Shown piece by piece: positions 1,120 through 22,854 of a DNA stretch of 64,000 bases (position 1 is its first letter; each line of letters begins with the position of its first letter). Both the position numbers and the translations under genes were made by a program. The DNA comes from Spirochaetia bacterium. Lineage in GTDB: Bacteria > Spirochaetota > Spirochaetia > CADAEX01. The notes beneath the pieces were generated by a model. That model was not told the origin of the DNA, did not search any database, and saw nothing but the letters and a program-made list of their open reading frames with translations. The DNA lies in assembly GCA_963662265.2 (NCBI GenBank), contig CAXXHA010000036.1:64001-128000 (forward strand). Reading direction: 5' to 3'.

Positions 1120-4100
1120 ATGAAGAAAGTTATCAGCTATTTTGCGGAAAGGCACCTTCTTGCAAACTTTATCATAGCGGGAGTCATAATCGGGGCTGTT
1201 TTTTCCTGGCAGATGATCGGCAAGGAAGATATGCCTGATGTGACTTTTGATTTCATGAGAATAACTACAAGTTATAAAAATGCGACACCTGAAGATGTTG
1301 ATTTTTTCATAACTTCGGAAATAGAAGACTCCCTGAAGGGACTCAGCGGAATAAAAAAAATTACAAGCACATCATCAGGATCAAGAAGTTCCATTTCAGT
1401 TGAGCTTGAAGATGATAAGGAAGAAAGAGCTTCTGTCATATCAAATATTCAGACAGCTGTTCTTTCAGTAGATCTCCCCGGAGATGCCGGGACCCCCTCT
1501 TTCCGCCAGTTCAAGACATCTGAAAGAGCTATTATTGATATCGCGATTGTAAAAAAAGATACTGAATTCCTTGGAAAGAGGGACAGGGAAGAGCTTCAGG
1601 ACTTTGCAGTTTCTCTTCAGTCAAGGCTTGAAACACTTCCGACCATAAGGGAAGTTACGATTTCCGGAGAACTGGACAGAGAGATCCTGATTCAGCCTGA
1701 TCCTGTTCAGATGAGTTTTTATGATATTTCTGTCAATGAAATAATTGATGCTCTTGAATCAGGAAATGTTCGTACCCCGCTTGGAGTGCTTGATAACGGG
1801 GAAGAGATTAAAGTATCAATGATTTCAGAACTTGATTCAATTGATAAAATCAGGAACCTGATTGTCAGGGGTACTTTTGAGGGCACTGTTGTCCGCCTGG
1901 GGCAGATTGCATCTGTAAATGAGGATTTCACGGAAAATACATCTATCGTGAAATTCAACGGGAGGGAAGGTGTCAGGCTCAATGTTGTAAAAAAAGCAGA
2001 CAGCAGTATACTTGATTCCAATCTTGAGGTTGTCAATGAAGTTGAAAAAATCAGCTCTTCGATGTCGGAATCTGATATTGAACTGATTCTGATGGATGAT
2101 GAATCAGAATCAGTAAGGGAAAGGCTTTCTCTTGTCTCAATTAACGGACTTATAGGATTTATTCTGATCCTGCTGACATTGTTTATCTTTCTCAGCTTTT
2201 CAAGCGGTATCTGGGTTGCTGCAGGAATTCCTTTCAGTTTCAGCTTTACTCTGCTGTTCCTCTATCTTGCCGGCTACACTATAAACAACATGACACTGGC
2301 TGCAATTATTATTGTCATGGGGATGATTGTTGATGATGCCATAGTTGTCGCGGAAAATGTCACAAGGCAGATAAGTTCAGGAATTCCGAGAAAAAAGGCA
2401 GTTATTGAAGGGACTGATTATGTTGTGAAGCCTATAATTGCCAGTATCGTGACTACCTGTGTCGCTTTTCTTCCCCTTTATTTCTTTTCAGGCCATTTCG
2501 GTAAATTTGTTTTCTTTATTCCGCTGGTTATCATACTGATGCTGGGGGGAAGTCTTTTTGAGGCGCTTTTTATCCTGCCGTCTCATCTTTCTGTGAAATT
2601 CCCGTGGGAAAGGGAGGGAAAAAAAAGAAGGAAACACTGGTTTGAATATGTTGAAAAACTGTACGGAATATTTCTGGAGCATATTCTAAAGATGAGGTTC
2701 CTTGTTTACATATTTTTCATACTCCTGATTGCCGGCTCTTTTTATATTGCAAAAGAAAAAATGAAATTTGTCATGTTCCCGCGGGAAGAAGCAACCTCTG
2801 TTAGGGTAGATGCATATGCCCCTGACGGAACAGACAGGTATGAAACAGCAGCAATGGCTGCAGATGTCGAGAATATTTTTATCCCTTATCTGGGTAACGA
2901 GGTTAAATCATTCAGGACAAATATAGCACGAAGTAGGAGGGGCGGGGCTGTTGAAGATAACAGGTTTACCATGCGTATTGAGATAGTAAATGCGGATAAA
3001 AGGGAAAAATCGCTTAAACAGCTTACTTCCGAATGGAACAGGGAAATAAAGAAGCTCAAAGGGTTTAAAGAGGTCAAAATACTCAGAAGCAGGTTCGGCC
3101 AGTCAAGCGGAAGTGCTGTAGAGATAAAAGTGCAGGACAATAACGCCGGGGTCAGAAACGGTGCTGCCGAGCTTGTAAAAGAGAGACTCTCTGCTTTTGA
3201 AAGCATATCAGAGGCGGAAGTTGAAAAGCCCAAGATGAATTCCGAATACCATGTTGAAATTGATTCCGGAGCGCTTAATAAGCTTTCTGTTTCTGAATCA
3301 TCTGTTGTGACTGTTCTGAAAACAGCTCTCAACGGGATAAATGTTTTTGATATAAGCAGGGACGGAACTGATATTGAGGTCAATGTTATTCTTCCCGGAA
3401 TAAATACAGACAGTATTGAAAAAATCATGTCGCTTACAGTGAACAACAGAAACGGCTACTCTGTCCCTCTGTACAGCCTTATCAGCTACAGTGAAGTGAG
3501 AATGGCAGATTCTGTAAACCGTGAAGACTTTGTCAGAACTGTCAGGGTTTACGGGGATCTCAAAGAGGGTAGTTCTGTTACTCCGCTTCAGATAGCAGGG
3601 ATCCTGGAATCAGGAGTGTTTAATGAGGTCCAGGCAGAATACCCGACAGCATCTCTCAGTTTTGCCGGTGAGATTGAAGATTCACGGGAATCTGGCAATG
3701 AAATAATCTATTCTGTTACTGCTGTAATAATACTGATATATATCATACTGGCGCTTCTCTTCAATTCACTCTACAAACCTTTCATGATACTCCTTGCAGT
3801 TCCTTTCGGAGTTGCAGGGGTAATTTATGCGCTCTATTTTCACGAAATTACGCTTTACGGATTTTTCTCTGCAATCGGGGTTATAGGTCTTTCAGGTGTA
3901 GTTATAAATGATGCAATTGTCCTGATTGTGAAACTTGAAAGGGAATTGGACGGAAAAAAAGATATTACTGTCAAAGATATTGCAGATATAGCAAGGACAA
4001 GACTTAGGGCTGTTTTCCTGACTACAATCACAACAGTTGCAGGTCTTCTTCCCACTGCATACGGAGTTGCAGGGTATGACTCAATGCTTTCAGATATGAT

Positions 4101-8778: not shown

Positions 8779-11700
8779 ATGAAAAACAGAAATTTAAACC
8801 TGGGTATTGATGTCGGGTCTACAACAGTCAAGGCTGCAGTCATGGATCCGGTTAATTATTCTCTTCTCTATTCCGAGTACAGGCGGCATAATGCTGATCA
8901 GTCCGGAACTGTCAGGGATATACTTAAAAATATTACCGAAAAATTCCCCGATACTGTTTTTTCCGCAGCAGTCTGCGGAAGCGGCGGGCAGACTATAGCG
9001 AACAGGCTGGGTATAAAATTCATTCAGGAAGTTGTCGCAAATTCCCTGATGATAAGGAAATTTCATCATGACGTGAGGGTTGCAATCGAGCTTGGCGGTC
9101 AGGATGCAAAGGTTGTTTTCTTCCGGTATGATGAAGGCTCGGGGCAGCTTGTTCCCTCTGATATGCGTATGAACGGCAGCTGTGCAGGGGGGACCGGGGC
9201 ATTTATCGATCAGATTGCAGAGCTTTTAAGTGTAAGGACAGAAGAGATAGGAGCCCTGGCTGCTGAAGGGACTACTGTCTATGATATTTCAGGCCGGTGC
9301 GGTGTATTTGCAAAGACAGATATACAGCCCCTCCTTAACCAGGGTGTTTCCAAAAGCGATATAGCTCTTTCCTCTTTTCATGCAATTGCAAAACAGACTA
9401 TCGGAGGTCTTGCACAGGGGATGGATATCAGGCCTAAAGTCATTTTCGAGGGGGGCCCTCTGACTTTCAATCCCCGGCTTATCAAGGTTTTTCAGCAGCG
9501 GCTTTCACTATCCGATGATGAAATAATTATACCTGAAAACCCCGAGCTGATTGTGGCAAAAGGGGCAGCTCTCTCTGTCGATACAATGTTTGCTGATGCA
9601 GATACTGAATTCTCCCCTTCCGAAGGAATCGGGATAATTGATAAATGGATCTCGGGAATATCGGGATCTGTTTCAGAAGCAGCAAAGCCTTTTTTCACAG
9701 ATGAAAGCAGTTATGCAGATTTTCTTGCAAGGCATTCTGATAAAAGCTCATCATACATCTATGTTCCAGAAAAAGATGTTAAGAGTCTCGATGTATATCT
9801 TGGTATTGATGCCGGATCAACAACATCCAAATTTGTTCTCATAGACAGGGAAAACAGGATTGTCGATACATTTTATTCAGGAAACAGGGGAGAACCGCTC
9901 AAGGTTGTACAGTATGCTCTTCTCAGGATGAGAGACCGCTATGAAGCGCATGGGATAAAACTTAATATCCTGGGTGCAGGCGCAACCGGTTACGGCGAGC
10001 TCCTTTTTTCAAAAGCATTCAGAAGCGATTACCATACAGTAGAGACAGTTGCCCATGCAGAGGCTGCCCGGTATTTTGTCCCCGATGTAAGCTTCATACT
10101 CGATATCGGCGGACAGGATATGAAGGCTATCAACCTGAACAAGGGTGTAGTTACAGGTATTGTCCTTAACGAGGCATGTTCTGCCGGCTGCGGTTCTTTT
10201 GTAGAGACATATGCACGCTCATTGAATGTTTCTGTGGAAAAAATTGCAGAGTATGCTTTCAGATCAACATCCCCATCCCGCCTGGGGTCCCGATGCACTG
10301 TTTTCATGAACAGTTCAATAATTACGGAACAGAAAAACGGCAAGACAACAGAAGATATACTTGCAGGCATCAGCCGCTCAATAATTGAAAATGTTTTCAC
10401 AAAGGTTGTCAGAATTTCCAACTTCAATGATCTGGGAAATAAAATCGTGGTACAGGGGGGGACTTTCAAGAATGATGCAGTCCTCCGTGCTTTCGAGCAG
10501 TATACAGGTCGTGAAGTTGTAAGAGCACCGTTCCCCGGAGAAATGGGTGCTTTCGGTATTGCTCTGCTGACTAAAAAAAGCATTGAAGAAAGGAAAAAGG
10601 AAAATCCGGGTTTTATATCATCATTTACCGGTCTTGAAGATCTTGAAAATTTTTCCTATACAAAGTCTCCCGGAATAATCTGCCCCTTCTGTTCAAACAA
10701 CTGCAGCAGGACAGTAATAACATTCAGCCATGGAGATTCCTATATTACCGGGAATAGGTGCGAAAAAGGGCAGATACTTGGGGAAATAAAGAATCCTGAA
10801 ATCAGGGAAAAGCTTAAAAAAACCCATAAAAAACAGGAATCAGTCCCTGATATGTTCAGGCTTCATAATGAGCTTTTGTATTCAAATAATGATACACAGC
10901 TGCTCACGGAAAAGAGGGGAATAAAAATTGGGATTCCTGTTACTCTCGAGTTCTGGCACAGTCTCCCGTTCTGGAAAGCAGTTTTCACCTCGCTTGGATT
11001 TGATGTGGTTCTTTCCCCGAAATCAAGTTATGACATGTTTGAAAAAGGGCTCAAGTATGTGCCTTCAGATACAGTCTGTTTTCCAGCAAAGCTTCTTCAC
11101 GGTCATGTTGAGGAGCTTGCCGCAATGGGGGTGGACAGGATATTCAGTCCCATGATGGTAAGAATACCCAGGGAAAACAGAACTGCATTCGGGAACCATA
11201 CCTGTGTAATGCTTCAGGGATACCCGATGATTGTTGAAAAGAGCAATGAGATATTCGAACGTTTCGGCATAAATTTCGATCATCCGATTTTTCACTGGCA
11301 CAATGAAAAACTGAAATCAAAGCAGGCTGTTGACTGGCTTAATGAAACTTTCGGAATTGACAGGAAAACAGCTTTAAAAGCGGTGGAAGCCGGAAACAGG
11401 GCATCCGGGGAATTCAGAAACAGGATGACATATGAAGGGGAGAAGGTACTGAAATCTCTTGAAGGAACCAGGAAATTTGCAGTTGTTCTTGCGGGCCGTC
11501 CGTATCATTCCGATATGCTGATAAACCACAATCTTTCCAATTATTTCACCTCACAGGGTATTCCTGTTCTTTCCCTTGATTCGCTGTCTGCTGTAAATTC
11601 GGAAGATGTCGAAAAAATCAGGATGGAAACAACAATAACCTTCCATACCAGAATGATTTCCGCCGCAATTGCGGCTGCTTCCCACCCGAACCTTGAGATT

Positions 11701-13170
11701 GTACAGATTGTCAGTTTCGGCTGCGGCCATGATGCTGTTATTTCCGATGAAATGGTGAGGGAGCTTAAAAACCGGTCTGACAAGGAACTACTTATACTCA
11801 AGCTTGATGAAGGGGAATCTTCAGGCCCGCTTAACATAAGGATAAAATCATTCATAGAAACAGTATCAGCTCGGCGTAAGAACAGATCCCGCTCCATTGC
11901 TGACAAAATAAAGGAGAGGAGAATCCTCTATACAAAAAAGCACAGGAAGGAAAAAGTTATACTGGCGCCGAACCTGTCCCCCGCATTTACAGCACTGCTT
12001 TCTTCGATTATAAGCAGGAGCGGAATAAGAATGGAGCCTCTTCCCCTTGCCGGTGAACGGGCGATAGAGCTGGGGAAGAAATTTGTTCATAATGATATAT
12101 GCTATCCTGCCCAGGTCAATATCGGCGAGATGCTCGCAATTCTCGAAAAAGGGGAATATGATCCCTCTTCTGTCGCTCTCGGGCTTGCAAAAAACTGTGA
12201 GGCCTGCCGTGCCGGGCAGTATGCGGTTCTGGCCCGCAAGGCGCTTGATGAGGCAGGGTATCCTGAAGTCCCTGTTGTGACAACCGGTATAGATACAAAA
12301 AAAATGCATCCTGGGTTCAGGTTGTCGCTGCATCATCAGCTGCAGTCGCTGTGGGGGCTAACAATAATTGACGCGTATGAAATGATGCTGAGGCGTATCC
12401 GTCCCTATGAGAAATTCCCCGGAAGTACAGAGCGGATATTTGATCTTCATCTTAAAAGACTCTGCGACAATATCTCTCTCAATACAGGAAAACTGCTACG
12501 GATGCTTAAGGATGCTGTTGATGATTTCAACAGGGTTGAAAGCTATGAGACTGACAGAAAACCCCGTGTAGGCATTGTCGGTGAAATCCTGATGAATTAT
12601 CATCCTTCTGCAAACTGTTATATTGAAAAATATCTTGAAGAAAACGGGCTTGAAGTTGTGCAGCCTTCAATGCATGATTTTTTCCGAAAAACAGCTGTAA
12701 TAGAAAAGGAGATTGGAAAGAGAAGAATGGTTCCCCACCCGTTTCTTCATTATCTTCTCCATTCAGCAACAGATATTGCATATGAATATGTTCACAGGAA
12801 AGTATGGAACCTTGTCTGTTCAAATTTCCGGTTTAAAACTGAACATGATAATATTTACAGAATAGTCGAAAATATTGAACCTTTCATAGACAGGACCTAT
12901 ATCGGAGCCGAAGGGTGGAAACTTCCCGGTGAAATAATGTCCATGATCCAGGAAGGGGTGAACTCTTTTGTAATTCTGCAGCCTTTCGGCTGCCTCCCCA
13001 ACCATATCACAGGGCGGGGGATGATCAAGACAATCAAGAAAATCTATCCTAATGTACAGATTATCGCAATTGATTATGATCCTGATACAAGCCTGGGGAA
13101 TGTGGAAAACAGGCTCCAGATGCTTATTCTCAATGCAAAGGAAATTGAGGCAGCCTCGGTAACTGTATAA
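8779..13170 (+). CDS. 2-hydroxyacyl-CoA dehydratase activase-related protein (two BcrAD/BadFG ATPase domains plus DUF2229-type regions)
   Basis: Two ATPase motifs GIDVGSTT and GIDAGSTT; GGQD motifs; Fe-S Cys motifs CAGGTG and CSAGCG; VCFPAK, SFGCGHD and QPFGCLPNH. Confidence 0.92.
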   Translation: MKNRNLNLGIDVGSTTVKAAVMDPVNYSLLYSEYRRHNADQSGTVRDILKNITEKFPDTVFSAAVCGSGGQTIANRLGIKFIQEVVANSLMIRKFHHDVRVAIELGGQDAKVVFFRYDEGSGQLVPSDMRMNGSCAGGTGAFIDQIAELLSVRTEEIGALAAEGTTVYDISGRCGVFAKTDIQPLLNQGVSKSDIALSSFHAIAKQTIGGLAQGMDIRPKVIFEGGPLTFNPRLIKVFQQRLSLSDDEIIIPENPELIVAKGAALSVDTMFADADTEFSPSEGIGIIDKWISGISGSVSEAAKPFFTDESSYADFLARHSDKSSSYIYVPEKDVKSLDVYLGIDAGSTTSKFVLIDRENRIVDTFYSGNRGEPLKVVQYALLRMRDRYEAHGIKLNILGAGATGYGELLFSKAFRSDYHTVETVAHAEAARYFVPDVSFILDIGGQDMKAINLNKGVVTGIVLNEACSAGCGSFVETYARSLNVSVEKIAEYAFRSTSPSRLGSRCTVFMNSSIITEQKNGKTTEDILAGISRSIIENVFTKVVRISNFNDLGNKIVVQGGTFKNDAVLRAFEQYTGREVVRAPFPGEMGAFGIALLTKKSIEERKKENPGFISSFTGLEDLENFSYTKSPGIICPFCSNNCSRTVITFSHGDSYITGNRCEKGQILGEIKNPEIREKLKKTHKKQESVPDMFRLHNELLYSNNDTQLLTEKRGIKIGIPVTLEFWHSLPFWKAVFTSLGFDVVLSPKSSYDMFEKGLKYVPSDTVCFPAKLLHGHVEELAAMGVDRIFSPMMVRIPRENRTAFGNHTCVMLQGYPMIVEKSNEIFERFGINFDHPIFHWHNEKLKSKQAVDWLNETFGIDRKTALKAVEAGNRASGEFRNRMTYEGEKVLKSLEGTRKFAVVLAGRPYHSDMLINHNLSNYFTSQGIPVLSLDSLSAVNSEDVEKIRMETTITFHTRMISAAIAAASHPNLEIVQIVSFGCGHDAVISDEMVRELKNRSDKELLILKLDEGESSGPLNIRIKSFIETVSARRKNRSRSIADKIKERRILYTKKHRKEKVILAPNLSPAFTALLSSIISRSGIRMEPLPLAGERAIELGKKFVHNDICYPAQVNIGEMLAILEKGEYDPSSVALGLAKNCEACRAGQYAVLARKALDEAGYPEVPVVTTGIDTKKMHPGFRLSLHHQLQSLWGLTIIDAYEMMLRRIRPYEKFPGSTERIFDLHLKRLCDNISLNTGKLLRMLKDAVDDFNRVESYETDRKPRVGIVGEILMNYHPSANCYIEKYLEENGLEVVQPSMHDFFRKTAVIEKEIGKRRMVPHPFLHYLLHSATDIAYEYVHRKVWNLVCSNFRFKTEHDNIYRIVENIEPFIDRTYIGAEGWKLPGEIMSMIQEGVNSFVILQPFGCLPNHITGRGMIKTIKKIYPNVQIIAIDYDPDTSLGNVENRLQMLILNAKEIEAASVTV

Positions 13171-13481
13171 TTTTATTACAGCTTCCGATTTAATTTATTC
13201 TGCAGCTGTTTCTCTGTATTGCCCTGAAATCAGTATGCCGGAAAGCTTTTTTGTTTTCAGGGCAGGGAATTAACCATAAAATAGCATTCAATCCTGAAAT
13301 TCTGCTAAATTTTATATGATACAGGTGGCGATAAATAAAAGGGGAACTGTTTTTTTCCGGTTTTATTTATCTCATTCAGTCGTATGTGATATTGGAAAAA
13401 AGCAGTTGTCTGATGTTTGATATTGGATAATAAAGAGACTCCTCAGTCTCCGGAAAAGTTTAAAAAAGGTGAAGACCCGTT

Positions 13482-14792
13482 GTGAATGTACTAAGACAGG
13501 AAAGCAGATTCAGGATTTTTTGGGAAATATTTATTCTCGCAGTAACAATAGCAGTATTTATTGAAATACCTGTTTCAGTAGTGTTCAGCAGTACTCCTGT
13601 AAGCAGGATACTGTTACTGGAATTTTTAATTTCCTTTATATTTATTCTGGATATAGTAATCAAGCTGAATACAGCTCTTGTAATAAAAATGGATGTAATA
13701 ACTGACCGGCATGTGATTGCATCGGTATACATGAAAAAATGGTTCTGGATAGACCTTGCTGCAGCATTTCCGTTCTGGATCTTGCTCCATATATTTTCTA
13801 TTCCGGTTTCAGCCGGGATTCTCGCGGCTTTCCGGCTTGTCAGGGTATTCAAGATATTCAGGCTTATCCAGACACTCAGCAAGCTTAAGAGGCTGAGCTA
13901 TGTCAATCCTAACATAATGCGGATGATTCTCCTTATTTTCTGGATTATTATTATTGCCCATTTTGTTGCATGCGGCTGGATAATCCTGGAAGGTGTATCA
14001 GATGAGCAGGAACACTCCATGCAGTATCTGCATGCTTTCTACTGGACAATAACAACCCTGACAACAATAGGTTACGGTGATATCACCCCATCCGGGAAGT
14101 TCCAGATAATCTATACAATATTTGTTGAAATCATCGGCGCCGGTTTATACGGTTTTATAATCGGTAATATTGCAAACCTTATTGCAAACATTGATATTGC
14201 ACGCGCACAGCACAGGAACAAGCTTGAAAAAATCAATACTTTCATGCAGTACCGCAATATTCCCCATTCCCTGCAGAAGAGGGTTGATGATTATTATAAT
14301 TACCTGTGGGAGAGCAGGAGAGGTTATGATGAATCATCAGTTCTTAAGGATCTTCCCGGTTCTCTGAAGACTTCTGTCTCCATATTCCTGAACAAGGATA
14401 TGATTGAAAAGGTTCCCCTTTTCAAGGGTGCAGATGACGCCCTGATCAGGGAGATAATTCTCCAGCTTGAACCGGTAGTCTATACTCCGGATGATTATAT
14501 TGTCTATGAAGGTGATATCGGGTATGACATGTTTTTCATAAGCAAGGGATCTGTGGATGTCATGTCGGGCGACGAATCAATAGTATATGCAACACTCTCT
14601 GCAGGGCAGTTCTTTGGTGAGATTGCACTCCTCTTGAGTGTTCCCCGTACAGCAACAATCAAGGCAAAGGAATACTGTGATGTTTACAGGCTTGAAAAGG
14701 AAATATTTGACAGGGTTATTGAAAGATATCCCGATTTTGCGGAAACAATAAGAAAGCTTGCCGAAAAAAGACGGGAAGAGCTTGGAAAATAA
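13482..14792 (+). CDS. Cyclic nucleotide-gated K+ channel (SthK/LliK-like)
   Basis: Six TM segments; S4 FRLVRVFKIFRL; selectivity filter TTIGYGD; C-linker; CNBD with FGEIAL...PRTATI. Confidence 0.93.
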   Translation: MNVLRQESRFRIFWEIFILAVTIAVFIEIPVSVVFSSTPVSRILLLEFLISFIFILDIVIKLNTALVIKMDVITDRHVIASVYMKKWFWIDLAAAFPFWILLHIFSIPVSAGILAAFRLVRVFKIFRLIQTLSKLKRLSYVNPNIMRMILLIFWIIIIAHFVACGWIILEGVSDEQEHSMQYLHAFYWTITTLTTIGYGDITPSGKFQIIYTIFVEIIGAGLYGFIIGNIANLIANIDIARAQHRNKLEKINTFMQYRNIPHSLQKRVDDYYNYLWESRRGYDESSVLKDLPGSLKTSVSIFLNKDMIEKVPLFKGADDALIREIILQLEPVVYTPDDYIVYEGDIGYDMFFISKGSVDVMSGDESIVYATLSAGQFFGEIALLLSVPRTATIKAKEYCDVYRLEKEIFDRVIERYPDFAETIRKLAEKRREELGK

Positions 14793-14891
14793 GGGAGCTG
14801 CTGATATTTTCTCCAGCTTTCCATCCGGGGCGCTACCCTTTCAGGGGATATTATTCAATGTTCAGAGATATTGAGATTATAGAGTTGCCCT

Positions 14892-14920
14892 TTTACCCCG
14901 GAATATATCCGGGGTATAAT
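14892..14920 (+). promoter_or_regulatory. Putative sigma70 promoter (TTTACC-17-TATAAT) overlapped by a perfect palindrome TACCCCGGA-atata-TCCGGGGTA (candidate operator)
   Basis: 9-bp perfect inverted repeat at 14894-14916 spans the spacer; no U-tract follows on either strand. Confidence 0.5.
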
Positions 14921-14939
14921 TATAGTTCAGGAATGGTGT

Positions 14940-16178
14940 TTGTTTATGGATAATGATAAGAAAAATCAGATAGCTGCCTATCTTTTTAAGGTGTTTAACT
15001 CGGAAAACATAATTCCATCAGAAGTTGTTGCATCGCTTTTCAAGATGATGCCCTCTTTTGATCCTGCTTTTTCAACCGGAGTTCTCCAGGAATGGAAGAA
15101 AATAACTGAAACATATAAACAGGGGGGGAAGAATCCCCGGGAAATCAATTCTCCCCTTATAATTACAAGGGGACTCATGGAGGGAACTCCCGATACTAAT
15201 CTGAAGATGTACCTGCCTGAGGAAAAAATACTTATAAACAGGCAGCTTTTCAGAAACAAGCTGTCGAGTGTGAATTTCGGCAGTCTTACAGCTGATATTG
15301 AAAGAAGCCTTCTTGATGAACTTAAAAATGAATCAATAGCGCTTTCCGATCAGGAAGTCCTGATCTATTACAACCTTCTCAAGATAAATATGATGGCAAG
15401 ACTCTATGCATCAAGCCAGGGTAGAGCCACTCCCGGCAAGGACCCTGCTGTAAGCGGGGACAGCCGCAATTTCAAAACTGTGGGAGAAGGCGCAGGGAAT
15501 TTTCCAGACAAGATAATATCCCTTCTGTTTGAGAACTTTGCAGATCTTAACAAGCTTTCCTCTGTCAATGAAAAGAGAAATATTGACAGTAATCTCCTTA
15601 ACGCGGCAGTAAAGAGCAAGATATCAAAGAGTGTGCATAATCCGAGAATTTATCTTCTGATGTTCGGGTACGGCACAGATAAATACATGCTGTTTGTAAA
15701 GGAATATATAAAAATGGTTGTTTCCCGGTGGGGAGGCAACGAGGATGAGATTTTTGCCTCTTTTGCAGCGTACCAGCTTCTGAATTCAGCTTCAGAGGAT
15801 ATTATCGGCGAGATGGATCTTGCTGTGAGCCTCAGGAATTTCATATCAGACCGGCTCGGAAGAATACATCCTGTTTATTACTGTGCTATTCTTTTTGTCA
15901 CTGTTTTTACCTACATTCTTGTGATGCAGGTTGTTGAGATTGCGGGAAAATATGTATCTTCCCCTGAGCCCCAGAAATCAAAACTGCTTAAACTGTATAA
16001 TTCCGAGGAAAGAATCAACATGATGATTTCCAATGCTTTCAATATTGCGGCAGGCAAAATAGCGTCCTACAAGTCTGAATCAAGGGAAATAGTGCCAAAT
16101 ATGAAAAAATTTATTTCTAAATACAGCAACCTTGTAAAACCTGAAGATATGTTCAGAACAATCTATAAATTCCAGTAG
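14940..16178 (+). CDS. Hypothetical protein (largely alpha-helical, one hydrophobic segment)
   Basis: 412-aa ORF with genome-typical codon use; 12 nt from the next gene; no motif recognised. Confidence 0.75.
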   Translation: MFMDNDKKNQIAAYLFKVFNSENIIPSEVVASLFKMMPSFDPAFSTGVLQEWKKITETYKQGGKNPREINSPLIITRGLMEGTPDTNLKMYLPEEKILINRQLFRNKLSSVNFGSLTADIERSLLDELKNESIALSDQEVLIYYNLLKINMMARLYASSQGRATPGKDPAVSGDSRNFKTVGEGAGNFPDKIISLLFENFADLNKLSSVNEKRNIDSNLLNAAVKSKISKSVHNPRIYLLMFGYGTDKYMLFVKEYIKMVVSRWGGNEDEIFASFAAYQLLNSASEDIIGEMDLAVSLRNFISDRLGRIHPVYYCAILFVTVFTYILVMQVVEIAGKYVSSPEPQKSKLLKLYNSEERINMMISNAFNIAAGKIASYKSESREIVPNMKKFISKYSNLVKPEDMFRTIYKFQ

Positions 16179-16190
16179 CAAGGACAGAGT

Positions 16191-17771
16191 ATGATATTAA
16201 AACCGAGAAAAGGATTTTCATTTATAGTAAAATTTATTGATTTTTTTAATCCTGTTATTGTTCTTCTTTCCATTGCAGGATTGATTCTGGAATATACCCA
16301 ATACAAGGAATATGTTCTGTATCCGAACAGAATAATTGATATGGTTTTTGTTGTTGATTTTCTTCTCAGGCTGATTTCATTCCCGTCAGGAAGATATTTC
16401 TTCAAATCCTACGGATGGGTTGATTTCCTCGCATCTATTCCTGGTTTTACTGCATTCATGCAGTTCGGGCAGTATTTCGGATTATTCAAGGTGATGAGAA
16501 TAGGAAGGTTTTTCAAGATAATCAGGGTATTGAGATTCCTCCGTATTTTCAGCTTCCTTAAAAAGATGAAAGGGGATTCCGCTTTCATACAGGAAAGAAT
16601 AATGAAAATCGGTGTTACAATTGTTATTATCTTTGTAACAGGCCTCGGTTTTACAGATTATTTCATAACACAGACTCTTTCCTCCCTTAAGGGGGAAAAT
16701 ATCAGGACTGTCATGGAGCTTTCCCGCAACAAGGTGGATAAGCTTGCAGAACGTGTTGAAAATGTTGCCTATTATTCAGACAGGGGTATTCTTTATGACA
16801 GCGAAGGGAAAACAGCTGATACTTACAGTGATTACGCTGAAAAACTAAACAGTCTTAACATCTGGTACACTGAAGTCAGGTTTTCCGACAGCTCGGCAGA
16901 TCATGACGGTTACCTGATACCTGTTGAAGGTATACTTGTTACTTCTGAAGATATAATGGTAAAGCATGACAATATCATGCTTATACTGATTGCCTCCCTT
17001 ATTATGATACTTGTCATACTAATATTCTATATCGGGTATATTTTTGCCAAGGACATGAAAATAGTCCAGCTGATAAATGATTCGGTTGATGCCGGAGATT
17101 ACTGGCTTCTGAAAGAGGAGGCAAGGAAATACTCATCGACAGGAGAACTGGCTGTTGAAGAGGGTGAGGATGAAATAGTCAGCCTGATTAAAATGGCTGC
17201 AGTACTGGCTGAAAGAGCTGAAGTATCTGCAGGGGGTATGGCAGGAATGGACAGCATATTTTCAGATACCGGTTTTTCCGGTGATTTCCCGCAGCTTGAC
17301 ACCTCATTCCAGAGTATGCCTCCCGATAATGAACATGATATGCCTGCGATTGATTCAGGAACAGGTGAAGTCGAAGTGGAGATGCCGGTTATTTCTGATG
17401 TTGATGAAGATGAGGAAATAAATGAACTTGCAGAAGTTCTTTCAGATTTCGGCGGATTCACTGATGAATTCGGAAAAGCTTCAATATCTGAAAACAGTAC
17501 TGAAACTTATGCCGAATCTGAAAACAGTTTAATGTCTTCAGGTTCAGAAACTATGCCTTATTCAGCCGATACATCTGATTCTGAAACAGTGACGGAAAAA
17601 CTTATGACAATTGAAAAAACTGTCAGGGAAATAAACAGTAAATTATCGTCACTTGAAAATGTCCGGGAAAGCACTCTTGAGTCAGTTGCAAGAGATGCTG
17701 CTTCCCGTGCTGTTAAAATAACGTCAAAATCCATTGGTGAATATATACATAAAAAACTGTCCGGTAAGTGA
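16191..17771 (+). CDS. Voltage-sensor-domain (Ion_trans S1-S4) membrane protein lacking a pore loop
   Basis: S2 FVVDFLLR, S3 GWVDFLASIP and S4 KVMRIGRFFKIIRVLRFLR; two further TMs flank a ~100-aa loop; no GYG/TLE filter; acidic tail and C-terminal coiled coil. Confidence 0.8.
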   Translation: MILKPRKGFSFIVKFIDFFNPVIVLLSIAGLILEYTQYKEYVLYPNRIIDMVFVVDFLLRLISFPSGRYFFKSYGWVDFLASIPGFTAFMQFGQYFGLFKVMRIGRFFKIIRVLRFLRIFSFLKKMKGDSAFIQERIMKIGVTIVIIFVTGLGFTDYFITQTLSSLKGENIRTVMELSRNKVDKLAERVENVAYYSDRGILYDSEGKTADTYSDYAEKLNSLNIWYTEVRFSDSSADHDGYLIPVEGILVTSEDIMVKHDNIMLILIASLIMILVILIFYIGYIFAKDMKIVQLINDSVDAGDYWLLKEEARKYSSTGELAVEEGEDEIVSLIKMAAVLAERAEVSAGGMAGMDSIFSDTGFSGDFPQLDTSFQSMPPDNEHDMPAIDSGTGEVEVEMPVISDVDEDEEINELAEVLSDFGGFTDEFGKASISENSTETYAESENSLMSSGSETMPYSADTSDSETVTEKLMTIEKTVREINSKLSSLENVRESTLESVARDAASRAVKITSKSIGEYIHKKLSGK

Positions 17772-17887
17772 CAGAAGTGCTTTTATTCGCTGTTTTAATA
17801 TAATTATTTGTTATATTACAATTACATTACAATCAGAAAATGCAATGATGATTGACGACAGTTATTATCTCTGGTATTTTTATTTTT

Positions 17888-18994
17888 ATGAAGATAGCGC
17901 ATATACACAGCGGCGTAAGGGGAATAGCTTCTTATGCTCTTAACTTATATAATTATTTCGAATCGGCAGGCGACAGGACTCTTATTGTCAGTGAAGCAAA
18001 ATGGACAAAAAAGAGAATACCTGTTTATGAACCAAAATCCTATCTTATCGGCGGAGTAATGCCATGGGCCAGGAATGTAGGAGAGGTGGGGGAACAACTT
18101 ACAGAGTTTCAGCCTGATATTCTTCACCATCATCACCCATCAGGCAGGCTTGATTTTCATATCTCCAAGTTTCAGAAATCACTCGAATGTCCGCTGGTCT
18201 GTACATTCCATATGTCAGTCGGGTCCAGAAAATATATGGTTGATAAATGGATGAATGCCTTTTTTCTTGCGACAAGGCGAAATTTCCGGAACGCGGACTG
18301 TTATGTTGCAATCAGCAAATTTGTTAAAAAGCAGCTTGAAGAGATCGGAGGAGTTCCTAAAGAGAAAATTGTTCTCCTGTATGCCGGTGTTGATCCTGAA
18401 GTATTCAAACCTGTTCAGTATGAAAACCATGATACACTTAATATAACATTTGTCGGACAGATTACCCCGGAAAAGGGGATTGACCAGCTGATTGATGTTG
18501 TTACACGGCTGAGTGAATACAGAAAAGTCAAACTTAACATTGTAGGCAACGGGACATTGAAACCTCTTCTCATGAAGAAGACACAGAATAACCGTGCAAT
18601 CAACTGGGTCGGATTTCTCAACAGTCCGGAAAAAGTCGGTGAGTTTTATGCAAAGTCAGATGTCACTGTTCTCCCGACAAGATGGGATGAGGCTTTTTCA
18701 TATATCCCTCTTGAATCTCTTTCAAGCGGAACTGCGGTTATAGCCTCCCGGTGCGGCGGGAATATGGAAGCTATACAGGAAAATGAAACAGGTATTCTGT
18801 TTACTCCCGGAAAAGGGGATGAACTCTTTGATATTCTCAGAAAAGTTGAAATCCCCGAGTTATGGGATATGGGCGCCAGAGGAAGAGAGTATATTCTGAA
18901 TAAACATACACTTCAGACATTCGGAGATAAATACAAGATGCTGTATCAGGACCTGTTAAGCAGACCTTTTTTCCCACGGCAGATTGATTCCTGA
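17888..18994 (+). CDS. Glycosyltransferase family 4 (GT-B)
   Basis: MKIAHIH start; FVGQITPEKGID; EAFSYIPLE (EX7E motif); ETGIL. Confidence 0.92.
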   Translation: MKIAHIHSGVRGIASYALNLYNYFESAGDRTLIVSEAKWTKKRIPVYEPKSYLIGGVMPWARNVGEVGEQLTEFQPDILHHHHPSGRLDFHISKFQKSLECPLVCTFHMSVGSRKYMVDKWMNAFFLATRRNFRNADCYVAISKFVKKQLEEIGGVPKEKIVLLYAGVDPEVFKPVQYENHDTLNITFVGQITPEKGIDQLIDVVTRLSEYRKVKLNIVGNGTLKPLLMKKTQNNRAINWVGFLNSPEKVGEFYAKSDVTVLPTRWDEAFSYIPLESLSSGTAVIASRCGGNMEAIQENETGILFTPGKGDELFDILRKVEIPELWDMGARGREYILNKHTLQTFGDKYKMLYQDLLSRPFFPRQIDS

Positions 18995-19341: not shown

Positions 19342-21051
19342 TCAGAACCTGAGCTTTCCGGAAAGGGCAAGTTCGATGTCGTTCAATGTCCTTCCGCTGT
19401 CATGTTTGTAGTTTGAAATATTTATCCAGTAGAAATCAGCACCCCACGATAATCTGCGCTCCGGGAAAAGAATTCCGTGAAGACCTGTTATAAGTTCCTT
19501 TTCAGGTGTTCCTGTAAGTGTAGTCCTGCTGTTTGCGTCAGACCCCTTGTCATAAGAGAGCGGATCATCCAGCGAATCATTAAGCTCTCCTGTCAGTTTA
19601 TATCTTGCATCCAGTGACACTGAATAAATATCCTTGTGGTCATATTCTATTTTTGAATAAATTACAATTGCATCAGGACCATGCTCATATCCTATCGGCT
19701 TGTTTACATACTCATATCTGTCAGGTTCAATATTGGACCACATCCTTCTCCTGTTTGTGAATCTTGTGAGGGGGTGCCACCTGTTATAGAAATAGGGGTC
19801 AGTAAACGCAAATTCACTGTTGAATGTCAGATATCCGGTTTCTACCGGTTTGATATATCTTAATCCTGTCAGAAACCCGTAGGCCCCCGGGCGTGTATCT
19901 TCCCCCTCATATCCCGGAACCTGAAACTCATCTACAGCAGCCTGTGCATAGATATTTAAGCCTCTTGAAACTGTGTAGTCTGCTTCGAAGGAAATCATTG
20001 CGTTTGAGTATTCAGGGGCAAAAAGGTTGTGGAAGACAAATGCCGGGTTCAGTTCTGTGATATTCAAATATTTGTTTCCGAAGACTATTGCTTCATTGAT
20101 GTTGATATTCAGTTTTTCAGAAGCCCTGAATTCTGTCCTGTGAGCGAGGAAAGCTTTGAACTGCTCCTGGTAGTTGTCATAACCCCCTGCCAGCCCGTTT
20201 TCATATGTGCCTGTATCAGCATCAATATCCTCTTCCTCAGAAGTCAGCCATGCATCCATGCCTATATAAATAAAAGACATCTTGAAGTCTTCCCAGTAGG
20301 TGGTGAAGCGTATCAGGTTGTAGAAATCCGAGTAATCGGAGAGCAGCAGGTTACCTGTTTCTCCCATTCCCCAGTCAGCCTTATCCCTTCCGAACTGCAG
20401 GTTCCAGTGTTCTCCCCCGAAAGAAAGGAATGCCCTGAAAGGGAAGTACCAGTCAAATTCCCTTGGATTTGCCGGAATGCTTGTATAGTTGTTGTCAATA
20501 TCTGTTACTGCCCTGTATTCCTCTTTAAGCGTCAGGTCCAGTGTCGCGTAAAACCCGCTGCCGAACCATCCCTCAAAAGGTACTGAAAGGAGGGGATTTC
20601 TTTCTTCAAACCCATGCTCCCATTCCTTTCTGTTTTCATTTCCCTTAACATAGCCATCAATATTGATTTCTCCTGAAATCCTGTAGCAGAAATCCCCTTT
20701 TTTCCCGCCGTCAATATCTTCTGACAGTTCCGAGTTTATTATCTTGTATGAGTATTCTTCGGCAGGCGAAAGCAGCTTTACAGGAAGCCGGTCAAGAATC
20801 ATGATTGCCTCATCGACTGACCAGGGCCTTGCCGTTGACGGAAGTGCCATGCTGTTTATCATGTAGAGCCTGTCAATTTCCCTGTACAGGGGGGAGAAAA
20901 CCGGTATGATTCTCTGGTAATTTTTCTTATCGGAATTGTTTTTCTCTGCAGATGCCGGAATCAATACAGCAGTCATGAAAATGACTGCATATGCAAGGAG
21001 GATAATTTTTTTTATTTTTTTAAAATCAGCTGATGTTTTTTTTTCTCTCAT
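19342..21051 (-). CDS. Capsule assembly Wzi-family outer membrane beta-barrel protein
   Basis: Signal peptide; helical N-terminus (RPWS); FGRDKADWG...NLLLSD; AHRTEF...EAIVFG...LNP; C-terminal Phe. Confidence 0.7.
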   Translation of the reverse strand: MREKKTSADFKKIKKIILLAYAVIFMTAVLIPASAEKNNSDKKNYQRIIPVFSPLYREIDRLYMINSMALPSTARPWSVDEAIMILDRLPVKLLSPAEEYSYKIINSELSEDIDGGKKGDFCYRISGEINIDGYVKGNENRKEWEHGFEERNPLLSVPFEGWFGSGFYATLDLTLKEEYRAVTDIDNNYTSIPANPREFDWYFPFRAFLSFGGEHWNLQFGRDKADWGMGETGNLLLSDYSDFYNLIRFTTYWEDFKMSFIYIGMDAWLTSEEEDIDADTGTYENGLAGGYDNYQEQFKAFLAHRTEFRASEKLNININEAIVFGNKYLNITELNPAFVFHNLFAPEYSNAMISFEADYTVSRGLNIYAQAAVDEFQVPGYEGEDTRPGAYGFLTGLRYIKPVETGYLTFNSEFAFTDPYFYNRWHPLTRFTNRRRMWSNIEPDRYEYVNKPIGYEHGPDAIVIYSKIEYDHKDIYSVSLDARYKLTGELNDSLDDPLSYDKGSDANSRTTLTGTPEKELITGLHGILFPERRLSWGADFYWINISNYKHDSGRTLNDIELALSGKLRF

Positions 21052-21150: not shown

Positions 21151-22854
21151 TTAATATGCCTGCCATTTACCCGAAAGCGTCAGTATGCTGTTCCATTCAT
21201 GATCACCTTTATTCTTGTTTTTGTTATGCACGTATTCAACAGTAAGGGCAGCTGACAGTTTGACACCGTAAAAAGGTATTCTGTACTCTGTGTAAAGTGT
21301 CGAATCAAGAGTTGTTTCCCTGACAGCCCCGTCAATCCCGTAGTCCAGGAAGTTGTAGTTTTCAACATCCTCATCATAAAGACCGCCCATTCCCCATGTG
21401 ATACCGTCATCATGGGCATGGGTATTTACATCTCCGAATGCGTCCTGAATAAATCTGAAAGTAATACCGTGTGTTCTTCTTATATCTGCATCGTAACGGA
21501 AATCAAATGACAGCATATGCGCGTTGGGGGGCAGTGTATGACCGATACTGACTCCGTCATGTGTGTAGTTGTTTCTATGTCCGTTCACCTCTTTGTGTGT
21601 ATATACCCACTGGTTAAGGTATGTGTATTCTGTTGTGAAAGTCAGGCCGTCTGCAAAGCTGTAGTTCCTGTATCCCAGCGTTATACCCATTTCATTATGG
21701 TAGTAGGCCGGGTTGAAAAGCTGTCCGAAGTCCCAGTCATCGACAAATAGGGAAAGATAGAGGTTTGACTGTTTAAATCTGAAAAGGAAATCAAATCCTC
21801 CCATCTTGTTATCCAGGTCTCCCTGGTTAACCTCGCTTATGTAGTAGAGTGAAAACGGGTTTGCATAGGCAAGTTCAAATCTTTCTGAATACATGACAGT
21901 TTCGAAGAAAGAGAACTGAAACCAGTCACTGAGCTGGTATTCGATTCTGTGCCCTGTTATCAGTTTTCCTTTATCTTCATCTGCCTCATCATCTGTCTGT
22001 GTTAAAAATCCTGTAATCCATGAAAAGTATATTTTTTCACCGACTGGTATGTCGAATGTCAGGTATTCATATGGAACTGATGTTGCTGAGAGCGCAAGGT
22101 TTGCATACTGGCTGGGCCCCCATGATATTGAATCCCTTCCGAAAGTTATCATTGCAATGTCAGCATCAATTGTTGTCTGGTTTAGCTGGTTCATCCGTAT
22201 CGAAAGTTCTGGATCTCCGACTGCCCGGTTAGCATCAAGGTTGAAACTTGTACCGCCGTTTGCAAGATTTACTGTGTACATATTGAAATCCGGTTTTGCC
22301 GGAGTTTCGAATTTCCTGTAGGGAGCTTCTTCCCATGTTTCAAAGGCAAGGTATGAATCTGTTGAAAGACCCAGGTAGAGCCTGTTCCCGACCTGAACAT
22401 CAATTTTTAGTTCTGCTCCCGGTTCAATCACTGTGTCTTTAACAGAATCGGGAGATGTATTTACATTAAAGCGGGGAGCTATGTTCAGTCCTGTTGTAAA
22501 TTTCTCTGTCTCGTTTCTGAGGAGAGAAAAATGTTCCCCTTCAATACGTTTTTTATGGGACTGGAGTTCTTCTATATCTTTTTCTGTGAATTCTTCAGGA
22601 TCTGTTTTCCAGCTGTTTTCCATTTTTTTAAGATATTCAATCACCCTTTTTTCTGTATATGGCCTGACAGAAGGGAGGTATTCTATCCATCCCTTTGCAT
22701 ATCCCTTGTCAAGGAAAAGATATACCGGATCTTCTAGAGTAATATTTTTCAGGCTTTCCGCGCCTGCCGGAAATGCCGCTGCTGTAAGTATGAATGCTGC
22801 AATCAGCAGCCTGAAAACAGCTTTAGAAGTTTTTTTGCAATATGCTGGTCTCAT
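21151..22854 (-). CDS. Capsule assembly Wzi-family outer membrane beta-barrel protein (paralog)
   Basis: Signal peptide; RPYT; FGRDSISWGPSQ...LALS; GHRIEY...YANPF...DN..GFD; C-terminal W-x-x-Y. Confidence 0.72.
   Translation of the reverse strand: MRPAYCKKTSKAVFRLLIAAFILTAAAFPAGAESLKNITLEDPVYLFLDKGYAKGWIEYLPSVRPYTEKRVIEYLKKMENSWKTDPEEFTEKDIEELQSHKKRIEGEHFSLLRNETEKFTTGLNIAPRFNVNTSPDSVKDTVIEPGAELKIDVQVGNRLYLGLSTDSYLAFETWEEAPYRKFETPAKPDFNMYTVNLANGGTSFNLDANRAVGDPELSIRMNQLNQTTIDADIAMITFGRDSISWGPSQYANLALSATSVPYEYLTFDIPVGEKIYFSWITGFLTQTDDEADEDKGKLITGHRIEYQLSDWFQFSFFETVMYSERFELAYANPFSLYYISEVNQGDLDNKMGGFDFLFRFKQSNLYLSLFVDDWDFGQLFNPAYYHNEMGITLGYRNYSFADGLTFTTEYTYLNQWVYTHKEVNGHRNNYTHDGVSIGHTLPPNAHMLSFDFRYDADIRRTHGITFRFIQDAFGDVNTHAHDDGITWGMGGLYDEDVENYNFLDYGIDGAVRETTLDSTLYTEYRIPFYGVKLSAALTVEYVHNKNKNKGDHEWNSILTLSGKWQAY

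Follow-up and report, generated by a model that had tools for sequence, protein, structure and literature searches.

What might a voltage-sensor domain do in a bacterium when the protein that carries it shows no recognisable pore? The question is raised by one gene in a 64,000-nucleotide (nt) stretch of DNA from a Spirochaetia bacterium (contig CAXXHA010000036.1, positions 64,001 to 128,000 of the forward strand), the whole of which constitutes the window and supplies the coordinates used below. At 16191-17771 the gene encodes a 526-amino-acid (aa) protein, hereafter the sensor, and directly upstream lies a gene for a 412-aa protein of no known family, hyp412. Sequence comparison and structural modelling point, with a probability put at roughly 55%, to the sensor being a non-conducting detector of membrane potential that signals via its cytoplasmic helices to hyp412, the pair forming a two-gene module. 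The relevant features, including open reading frames (ORFs), transmembrane (TM) helices and, for modelled regions, values of the predicted local distance difference test (pLDDT), were as follows:

14940-16178, + strand: the partner gene hyp412, an ORF of 412 aa, predicted all-helical, no known family
16191-17771, + strand: the sensor gene, an ORF of 526 aa
16218-16565, + strand: voltage-sensor domain S1-S4, residues about 10-125, assigned from Pfam Ion_trans, a Protein Data Bank (PDB) profile, model helices and VIA-align
16488-16544, + strand: S4 gating-charge run K100-R103-R106-K109-R112-R115-R118, with a basic residue at each of the seven positions in 21 of 21 family members
16566-16721, + strand: post-S4 linker motif (KKMKGDSAFIQERIMK) and long TM5 helix, residues 126-177, from conservation and model
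16722-16946, + strand: predicted small extracytoplasmic alpha/beta domain, residues 178-252, with 10-residue pLDDT block means of 84-90
16947-17042, + strand: TM6, residues 253-284, part of a single long helix (253-301) in the model
17043-17237, + strand: conserved cytoplasmic juxtamembrane helices, residues 285-349, at the position of a HAMP domain, not HAMP by sequence
17238-17585, + strand: acidic disordered linker, residues 350-465, with 30 acidic (D/E) residues against 1 basic (K/R)
17586-17768, + strand: C-terminal helices, residues 466-526, ending in a conserved basic amphipathic helix

The sensor is more than a chance ORF, since it belongs to a conserved family. By a word-indexed search 53 relatives were retrieved, none weaker than E 1e-65, and all eight for which an organism was named came from Spirochaetota. 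An exhaustive search of 1.84 billion representatives of all lengths yielded 39 representative clusters at E ≤ 1e-30, below which lay ordinary channel sensors; as the longest of these representatives did not exceed 601 aa, no fused output domains appear. Conservation was judged on an alignment of 21 sequences reaching down to 30% identity. Within 301 Spirochaetota genomes, drawn evenly across the phylum, the family was present at E ≤ 1e-30 in seven (six of the 247 of high quality); it was found in 4 of 41 close relatives, and the genome of origin holds a single copy. As far as these searches reach, the family is conserved, rare and restricted to Spirochaetota. The start codon of the sensor, an ATG, lies 12 nt past the hyp412 stop codon, with an AAGGA sequence inside that gap.

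The N-terminal part of the protein was assigned by several routes. Pfam Ion_trans matched residues 15-154 (E 2.4e-10) over profile positions 3-143 of 241 only, a stretch equivalent to the sensor half of a channel plus S5. An S2 motif (F53-x2-D56-x3-R60) and an S3 motif (W76-x-D78) are present, the five named residues being invariant throughout the alignment, and the charge-transfer residues F53, D56 and D78 lined up with the F, E and D of Kv2.1 in a HMMER alignment. The PDB sequence profiles matched were those of the Kv2.1 sensor (E 3.8e-6, residues 15-119) and of the Cav3 and Kv1.2 sensors, all confined to residues 15-122. An AlphaFold2 model built from the 21-row alignment (mean pLDDT 70.1; predicted template-modelling score 0.53) placed helices corresponding to S1-S4 at 10-34, 39-63, 75-90 and 102-119, with 10-residue pLDDT blocks of 79-90 over residues 1-90 and of 83-90 over residues 141-310. 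When this model was compared with 48,161 chains using VIA-align, solved sensors of Cav1.1, NaVEh, Nav1.7, Kv4.2, CatSper, Ci-VSP (4g7v, Z 10.5) and Kv2.1 were matched at Z 10-11 with root-mean-square deviations (rmsd) of 2.9-3.9 Å over 111-123 residues, and the sensor of SLC9C1 at Z 9.0 (rmsd 3.0 Å, 105 residues). The matches cover model residues from about 3 to 137, and rows spanning further gave rmsd values of 15.7-18 Å. Foldseek on the whole model was weak, with nothing at E ≤ 0.001 and KCNQ1 the best match at E 3.8e-3.

Taken together, these sequence and model data indicate that the S1-S4 voltage-sensor domain is genuine and under constraint. A prior reading of the DNA letters alone (the sequence-only reading) had proposed just such a domain with S2 and S3 counter-charges, and the Pfam match, the invariance of the residues concerned and a structural Z of about 11 bear it out. 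The same reading had counted seven S4 charges against four in the channel encoded nearby; the seven map exactly to 16488-16544, with K or R at every one of the seven positions in all 21 members, and the four of the channel are R118, R121, K124 and R127. The number is nonetheless within the known range rather than exceptional, passages of one review giving seven for KV1.1/1.2 and eight for voltage-sensor domain IV of NaV1.4 (PMC13661669).

The most conserved stretch past S4 is the linker and TM5 region that follows it, where D129, S130, R136, M138, K139 and G141 are the same in every aligned sequence. Hydrophobic segments at about 135-160 (TM5) and 255-292 (TM6) are separated by about 100 residues, and no filter motif of the GYG type is present in residues 161-254. 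In the model, TM5 is a long helix (131-177) followed by an outside domain comprising a helix (182-188), two strands (192-197, 200-203), a second helix (213-219) and four further strands (226-230, 235-238, 241-244 and 246-251); TM6, in which F279, Y280 and G282 are conserved and the last of these invariant, then follows. The re-entrant pore helix that the sequence-only reading had named as grounds for its own refutation was absent from the prediction, in which the region between TM5 and TM6 is instead this helix/strand domain with six beta-strands. The pore helix and filter of six-TM channels are likewise missing from the Ion_trans match, which stops at profile position 143, in contrast to the neighbouring channel, which matches Ion_trans positions 3-236 together with Ion_trans_2. 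The claim of a protein without a channel-type pore module, arranged as TM, outside domain and TM, thereby stood, and on the model the region past S4 is a receptor-style helical hairpin bearing a small outside domain. A model of the sensor kinase WalK ranked third in the Foldseek search, a weak match at E 1.1e-2; the VIA-align rows were filled by the S1-S4 sensor, none being informative on the outside domain.

A missing P-loop does not in itself exclude conduction: two-TM channels with large outside domains line their pores without one, and Hv1 conducts through the sensor domain. The protein could accordingly be a non-canonical ion channel, either with a multi-subunit pore formed by TM5 and TM6 or with Hv1-like conduction through S1-S4. 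In favour of this, TM5 and TM6 are conserved, K139, G141, V145 and G282 being invariant, and they align with the S5 and S6 ends of Ion_trans in P0153, a member of a sister subfamily described below (profile positions 3-221 of 241). By way of contrast, TM6 is almost purely aliphatic, with a 19-residue hydropathy of up to 3.2, and within the two helices no invariant position is polar or charged; omega and proton pathways would not call for an unbroken series of seven basic S4 residues; the sister subfamily has, in place of a channel gate, a HAMP-like signalling domain; and an obligate, soluble-looking partner in hyp412 fits signalling better than conduction. A conducting role is considered unlikely.

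A second alternative takes the outside domain to be the real input of a chemical receptor and S1-S4 to be no more than a voltage-insensitive anchor or scaffold. The succession of TM, outside domain, TM and cytoplasmic helices is indeed the plan of ligand receptors, and the S4 of four distant relatives (P0088, P0093, P0094 and P0176) is degenerate. Within the sensor family itself, on the other hand, the seven charges together with the invariant F53, D56 and D78 are the most conserved features, whereas conservation within the core is lowest in the outside domain, which two members lack altogether; the chemical-receptor explanation is thus rated as improbable. The two members concerned, P0079 (320 aa) and the gene at 1618-2613 (+) of locus L052, lack any outside domain between TM5 and TM6. 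Sensor, tail motif and C-terminal helix are all retained in both, and at L052 a hyp412 homologue still precedes the gene. As sequence variants they point to sensor-to-tail signalling as the core function, with the outside domain acting as an optional modulator.

If signalling from sensor to tail is the core function, attention turns to what the tail contains. A block of invariant positions lies past TM6 (A286, D288, L294, D297, S298, A301, D303, L306, L307, E328 and L332), the tail bearing the motifs DSxDAxDY and EDEI, and in the model the helix that includes TM6 continues to residue 301 and is followed by helices at 305-313 and, after a loop, 328-347. HAMP domains (PF00672) occupy this position, as two helices with a connector directly past the second TM helix of a hairpin. 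The label "HAMP-like", attached by the sequence-only reading to a segment containing EDEIVSL (residues 325-331), nevertheless failed three sequence tests for the sensor protein: Pfam HAMP was detected in none of 21 family members at E ≤ 1; a scan of the organism's own genome gave 36 HAMP matches, none on the sensor gene; and hhalign of residues 262-352 against 30 HAMP segments from the same genome returned a probability of 6.8% with TM residues only aligned. In a language-model atlas, the closest neighbours of residues 128-350 were Spirochaetota Ion_trans clusters of 380-388 aa (0.90-0.92), and weak leads to HAMP clusters appeared at 0.84-0.85.

The acidic linker beyond these helices has pLDDT values below 50 over residues 349-465, and its length and sequence vary across the family; it had been described beforehand as about 130 aa of acidic low-complexity sequence, of which the acidic character was correct and the length, at 116 aa, was not. 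It leads to two predicted helices (464-490 and 493-523), the last of which has the consensus AVKxxxKSIxxYIxKxL and was re-matched as a separate hidden Markov model segment in members of the family; the sequence-only reading had called this end a coiled coil, where the model predicts simply helices. A Pfam scan of the 21 members found Ion_trans in 18 and nothing else meaningful, while NCBIfam gave nothing meaningful for the 526-aa protein; in neither was there an output or enzyme domain past the sensor, whether of the methyl-accepting chemotaxis protein signal, HisKA/HATPase, cyclase or PTEN-like phosphatase type. The proposal that the protein has no enzymatic output is consequently retained, and signalling through protein-protein contacts is plausible.

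The positional case for the tail is drawn from a sister group, subfamily B, known only as a database annotation. It comprises Spirochaetota proteins entered as "ion transport protein", in frames of about 370-420 aa (P0097, P0153 and those of loci L005-L012, L029 and L030), and is homologous to the sensor family from S2 through the linker and TM5 to the first strand of the outside domain (hhalign probability 99.2%, E 2e-19, 156 columns), a profile of B matching the sensor protein itself over residues 39-285 at E 1.1e-15. The post-S4 linker motif is common to both groups, being shared as DS-x-x-Q-x-R/H, as are the voltage sensor, TM5 and the start of the outside domain. B is likewise without a filter: a GYG or GFG string occurs in 3 of 10 members, not at the pore position. 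The differences lie downstream, where B has a short C-terminus and a HAMP-like tail past TM6 that matched a HAMP profile built from the organism's own genome (hhalign 81.4%, E 1.2e-5, 49 columns spanning the domain), and in the gene row, B having another upstream partner. On these sequence comparisons the sensor tail sits where sister B carries its HAMP-like domain, and is itself not recognisably HAMP. Homology between the two tails was considered and rejected (hhalign probability 5%).

The B genes have a row of their own: a gene of 310-340 aa with no Pfam match stands directly upstream in 10 of 10 loci, a DUF503 gene downstream in nine of 10, and a ComFB-domain gene on the opposite strand in seven of 10. 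Homology of that upstream partner to hyp412 was rejected at an hhalign probability of 0.4%. B appears to be the commoner of the two groups, since weak matches limited to the sensor part, in frames of B size, came from 13 of 41 relatives, against 4 of 41 for the sensor family; eight of the 13 were fetched, and all eight proved to be subfamily B. The four relatives with a degenerate S4 noted above are more distant (E 1e-12 to 5e-4); they have the same plan with few S4 charges, and end in a different conserved C-terminal motif, GGLLxAALKKR.

The candidate recipient of the signal is hyp412, which the sequence-only reading did not name. Its gene probably starts at the ATG at 14946, as homologues begin at the methionine at residue 3. 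All 29 homologues are unnamed or hypothetical proteins of Spirochaetota, many of them on contigs whose lengths equal those of contigs with sensor matches, and hyp412 contains an invariant PEEKILIN motif. No match was found in Pfam, NCBIfam or PADLOC, and none that was usable in the atlas; Pfam scans of five homologues, including an N-terminally extended form from locus L027, gave nothing at E ≤ 0.01, and the best PDB sequence profile reached E 0.0065 over 86 residues. The AlphaFold2 model (pLDDT 81.4) is all-helical, with a best Foldseek E of 0.37 and a best VIA-align Z of 6.9, none reaching Z ≥ 8. Residues 180-406 resembled phosphodiesterase (PDE)/HD catalytic domains at Z 5.2-6.4 (rmsd 5.1-6.1 Å, 183-193 residues), a likeness to the PDE fold which falls below the noise bar of the tool for helical proteins. 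PADLOC had no match for the sensor either, and a role for the two proteins in anti-phage defence was rejected.

What distinguishes hyp412 is its inheritance. In 16 of 17 unique loci (the window; G001, G002 and G009; the distant loci L019-L028; and L048, L049 and L052, obtained reciprocally), down to about 35% identity, it is the gene immediately before the sensor and shares its strand. Nine of the 10 distant loci show the arrangement, and in a reciprocal search starting from hyp412 the sensor gene was found downstream in all three new loci with downstream sequence (L048, L049 and L052), two further loci ending inside hyp412. At the junctions the two genes overlap by 4 nt or, apparently, by more, or else lie 10-17 nt apart. 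Across the 301 genomes, the sensor occurred in seven and hyp412 in eight, all seven being held in common; the eighth (G144, 80% complete) contributes a hyp412 fragment at the start of a contig, and in two genomes (G282 and G301) both genes are present on different contigs. The genomes with the pair span several families, though they are not independent of one another. An all-against-all comparison of eight loci showed sensor and hyp412 clusters only to be widely shared, with no other such neighbour. By these genomic comparisons, hyp412 is a conserved, co-inherited partner of the sensor.

Several further forms of the partner were recorded. N-terminal extensions of about 100-200 aa are present in homologues at L027 (6229-7998, +) and L052 (109-1614, +). 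A homologue beside the sensor in genome G117 (contig C85, 4349-5536, -) contains one in-frame TAA, and may be a broken copy or the result of a sequencing error. P0204 is the hyp412 homologue of Thiospirochaeta perfilievii, and a search of the genome contigs based on it found no locus.

Complex prediction with residues 1-350 of the sensor plus hyp412 gave a median score of 0.34, against 0.00 for the best control; runs agreed in at least 88% of contacts, and pLDDT for the partner was at least 74. Of 80 solved complexes, 58 reached the pass mark used, as did two of 110 mismatched pairs, and scores of 0.60 or below were obtained by only seven of the 80 solved complexes and by both of the mismatches that passed. 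Given the prior from the genomic comparison, the score is read as mildly supportive of physical binding between the two predicted structures, the support being weak.

The mechanism we propose for a non-conducting sensor paired with hyp412 would begin with movement of the N-terminal S1-S4 domain, with its seven conserved gating charges, in response to voltage. That movement would pass via the family-specific post-S4 linker (KKMKxDSxFIQERIMK) into the receptor-type hairpin, where the long TM5 helix, the small outside alpha/beta domain and the long TM6 helix would serve as a relay, and thence reach the conserved cytoplasmic helices at the HAMP position of receptors. These helices, perhaps acting with the tethered C-terminal helix, would alter a contact with hyp412, the acidic linker serving to tether that C-terminal helix, which would provide a second contact or act in autoinhibition. 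hyp412 would then pass the signal onward.

Several observations weigh against this scheme. The modelled S4 and its flanks have a pLDDT of only 51-74 (residues 91-130). The sensor tail was negative in every HAMP sequence test and unalignable with the B tail, so that the analogy with HAMP is a positional one, and Pfam HAMP was absent at E ≤ 1 from both B proteins scanned. hyp412 has no family, and neither His nor Asp is found among its 39 invariant columns. Its best 19-residue hydropathy ranges from 1.16 to 2.26 across 18 members, and membrane insertion is uncertain because its one hydrophobic helix, although TM-like among close kin, is polar (H, T, N) in the majority of members. By the grading of the tool, a complex score in this band is wrong more frequently than right except where the prior is high. 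Lastly, the sensor at L019 is without an adjacent hyp412, an unrelated 400-aa ORF standing upstream in its place.

A broader proposition, which we advance tentatively and regard as somewhat doubtful, is that bacterial voltage receptors occur throughout Spirochaetota as two sister families, in each of which a full Kv/Nav-type sensor would drive a HAMP-type hairpin in place of a pore and so convey membrane-potential information to a dedicated soluble partner of new fold.

The gene row in which the module lies includes a channel, and two features upstream of hyp412 are relevant here:

13482-14792, + strand: an ordinary cyclic-nucleotide-gated (CNG) K+ channel of SthK-like type, with Ion_trans (3-236), Ion_trans_2, cNMP_binding, a TTIGYGD filter and a four-charge S4
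14892-14920, + strand: a promoter-like site, TTTACC-17-TATAAT, matching the consensus at 10 of 12 positions and ranking first among + strand sites in 13200-18100

The channel is comparable to SthK of Spirochaeta thermophila (PMC5987880). Channel, hyp412 and sensor form one same-strand row in the window and in G001, G002 and G009, an arrangement that might suggest an accessory or regulatory subunit of the channel, and modulation of the channel had indeed been put forward from the sequence. G001, G002 and G009 are, however, close kin of the same genus or family whose channels are 63-84% identical, and the channel is adjacent in none of the 10 distant loci, where a channel query matched only the sensor gene; nor does it figure among the clusters widely shared by the eight loci compared. 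It is separated from hyp412 by a 153-nt gap containing the promoter-like site, which is a candidate only, as the scan did not exceed chance (16 sites found, 13.5 expected). With a link confined to close kin and a gap of this kind, the modulation idea is unsupported, and a subunit role is judged very improbable. The interpretation reached in the sequence-only reading is therefore kept as to a pore-less voltage sensor, a receptor-like plan and no enzymatic output, and set aside as to the HAMP label and channel modulation.

Other genes of the locus were noted in passing. Two tandem ORFs of about 568 aa (19342-21051 and 21151-22854, both -), weakly alike and with signal-peptide-like N-termini, are kept beside the cluster in G001 and more loosely in G002. 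Upstream of the channel, a 1463-aa ORF with an internal repeat (8779-13170, +) is kept in G001, G002 and G009 at 65-83% identity.

The non-channel uses of voltage sensors named in passages of two reviews (PMC13095418 and PMC13661669) are all eukaryotic: VSP, Hv1, TMEM266, SLC9C1 and CaV1.1-RyR1. Ci-VSP/TPTE is alike in that a pore-less S1-S4 sensor controls a cytoplasmic effector, and the solved Ci-VSP sensor (4g7v) superposed on the model with an rmsd of 3.3 Å over 118 residues. The effector of VSP is, however, a covalently attached phosphatase, whereas the spirochaete sensor has no enzyme domain, and its putative effector is a protein in its own right; beyond S4 the sensor continues with two further TM helices and an outside domain, and the host is a bacterium. 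Hv1 and TMEM266 share a sensor without a pore domain and C-terminal helices past the membrane part, but in these S4 runs directly into a coiled coil, whereas here TM5, the outside domain, TM6 and the acidic linker are interposed. The S4 of Hv1 has three charges, compared with seven in the spirochaete sensor. TMEM266 is given as non-conducting and of unknown function in a passage of one of the reviews (PMC13095418). SLC9C1 and CaV1.1-RyR1, so far as the source passages describe them, offer an analogy of working only, in that a sensor transmits conformationally to a non-pore module or to a separate protein; partners and architecture differ, both are eukaryotic, and there is no homology beyond the sensor.

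HAMP receptors such as chemoreceptors and WalK have the same succession of TM, periplasmic alpha/beta domain, TM and juxtamembrane helices. The spirochaete protein differs from them in that an N-terminal voltage sensor replaces the simple first TM helix, in having no kinase, MCP-signal or cyclase output, and in that HAMP is undetectable by sequence. It is a member of none of the VSP, TMEM266 and SLC9C1 families, and the tests for HAMP membership failed. A search of full-text literature, outside which subscription journals and supplements lie, returned neither a bacterial non-channel voltage-sensor protein nor a voltage sensor joined to HAMP.

If the broader proposition of two sister families is true, this would be the first coupling of a voltage sensor to HAMP and the first prokaryotic non-channel voltage-sensor signalling system. 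Re-use of S1-S4 for signalling would be shown to extend to prokaryotes by a bacterial sensor that has a transducer of receptor type and a partner of its own, and in such a protein the sliding S4 and the helical relay of HAMP type, both of them well-studied devices of transduction, would be brought together. With its seven strictly conserved charges, S4 is attractive for gating-current work, and is a possible scaffold for a voltage reporter. Sensor and hyp412 would also provide a small two-gene system in which to study how bacteria read their membrane potential, of which, on the broader proposition, these bacteria would have a direct protein read-out.

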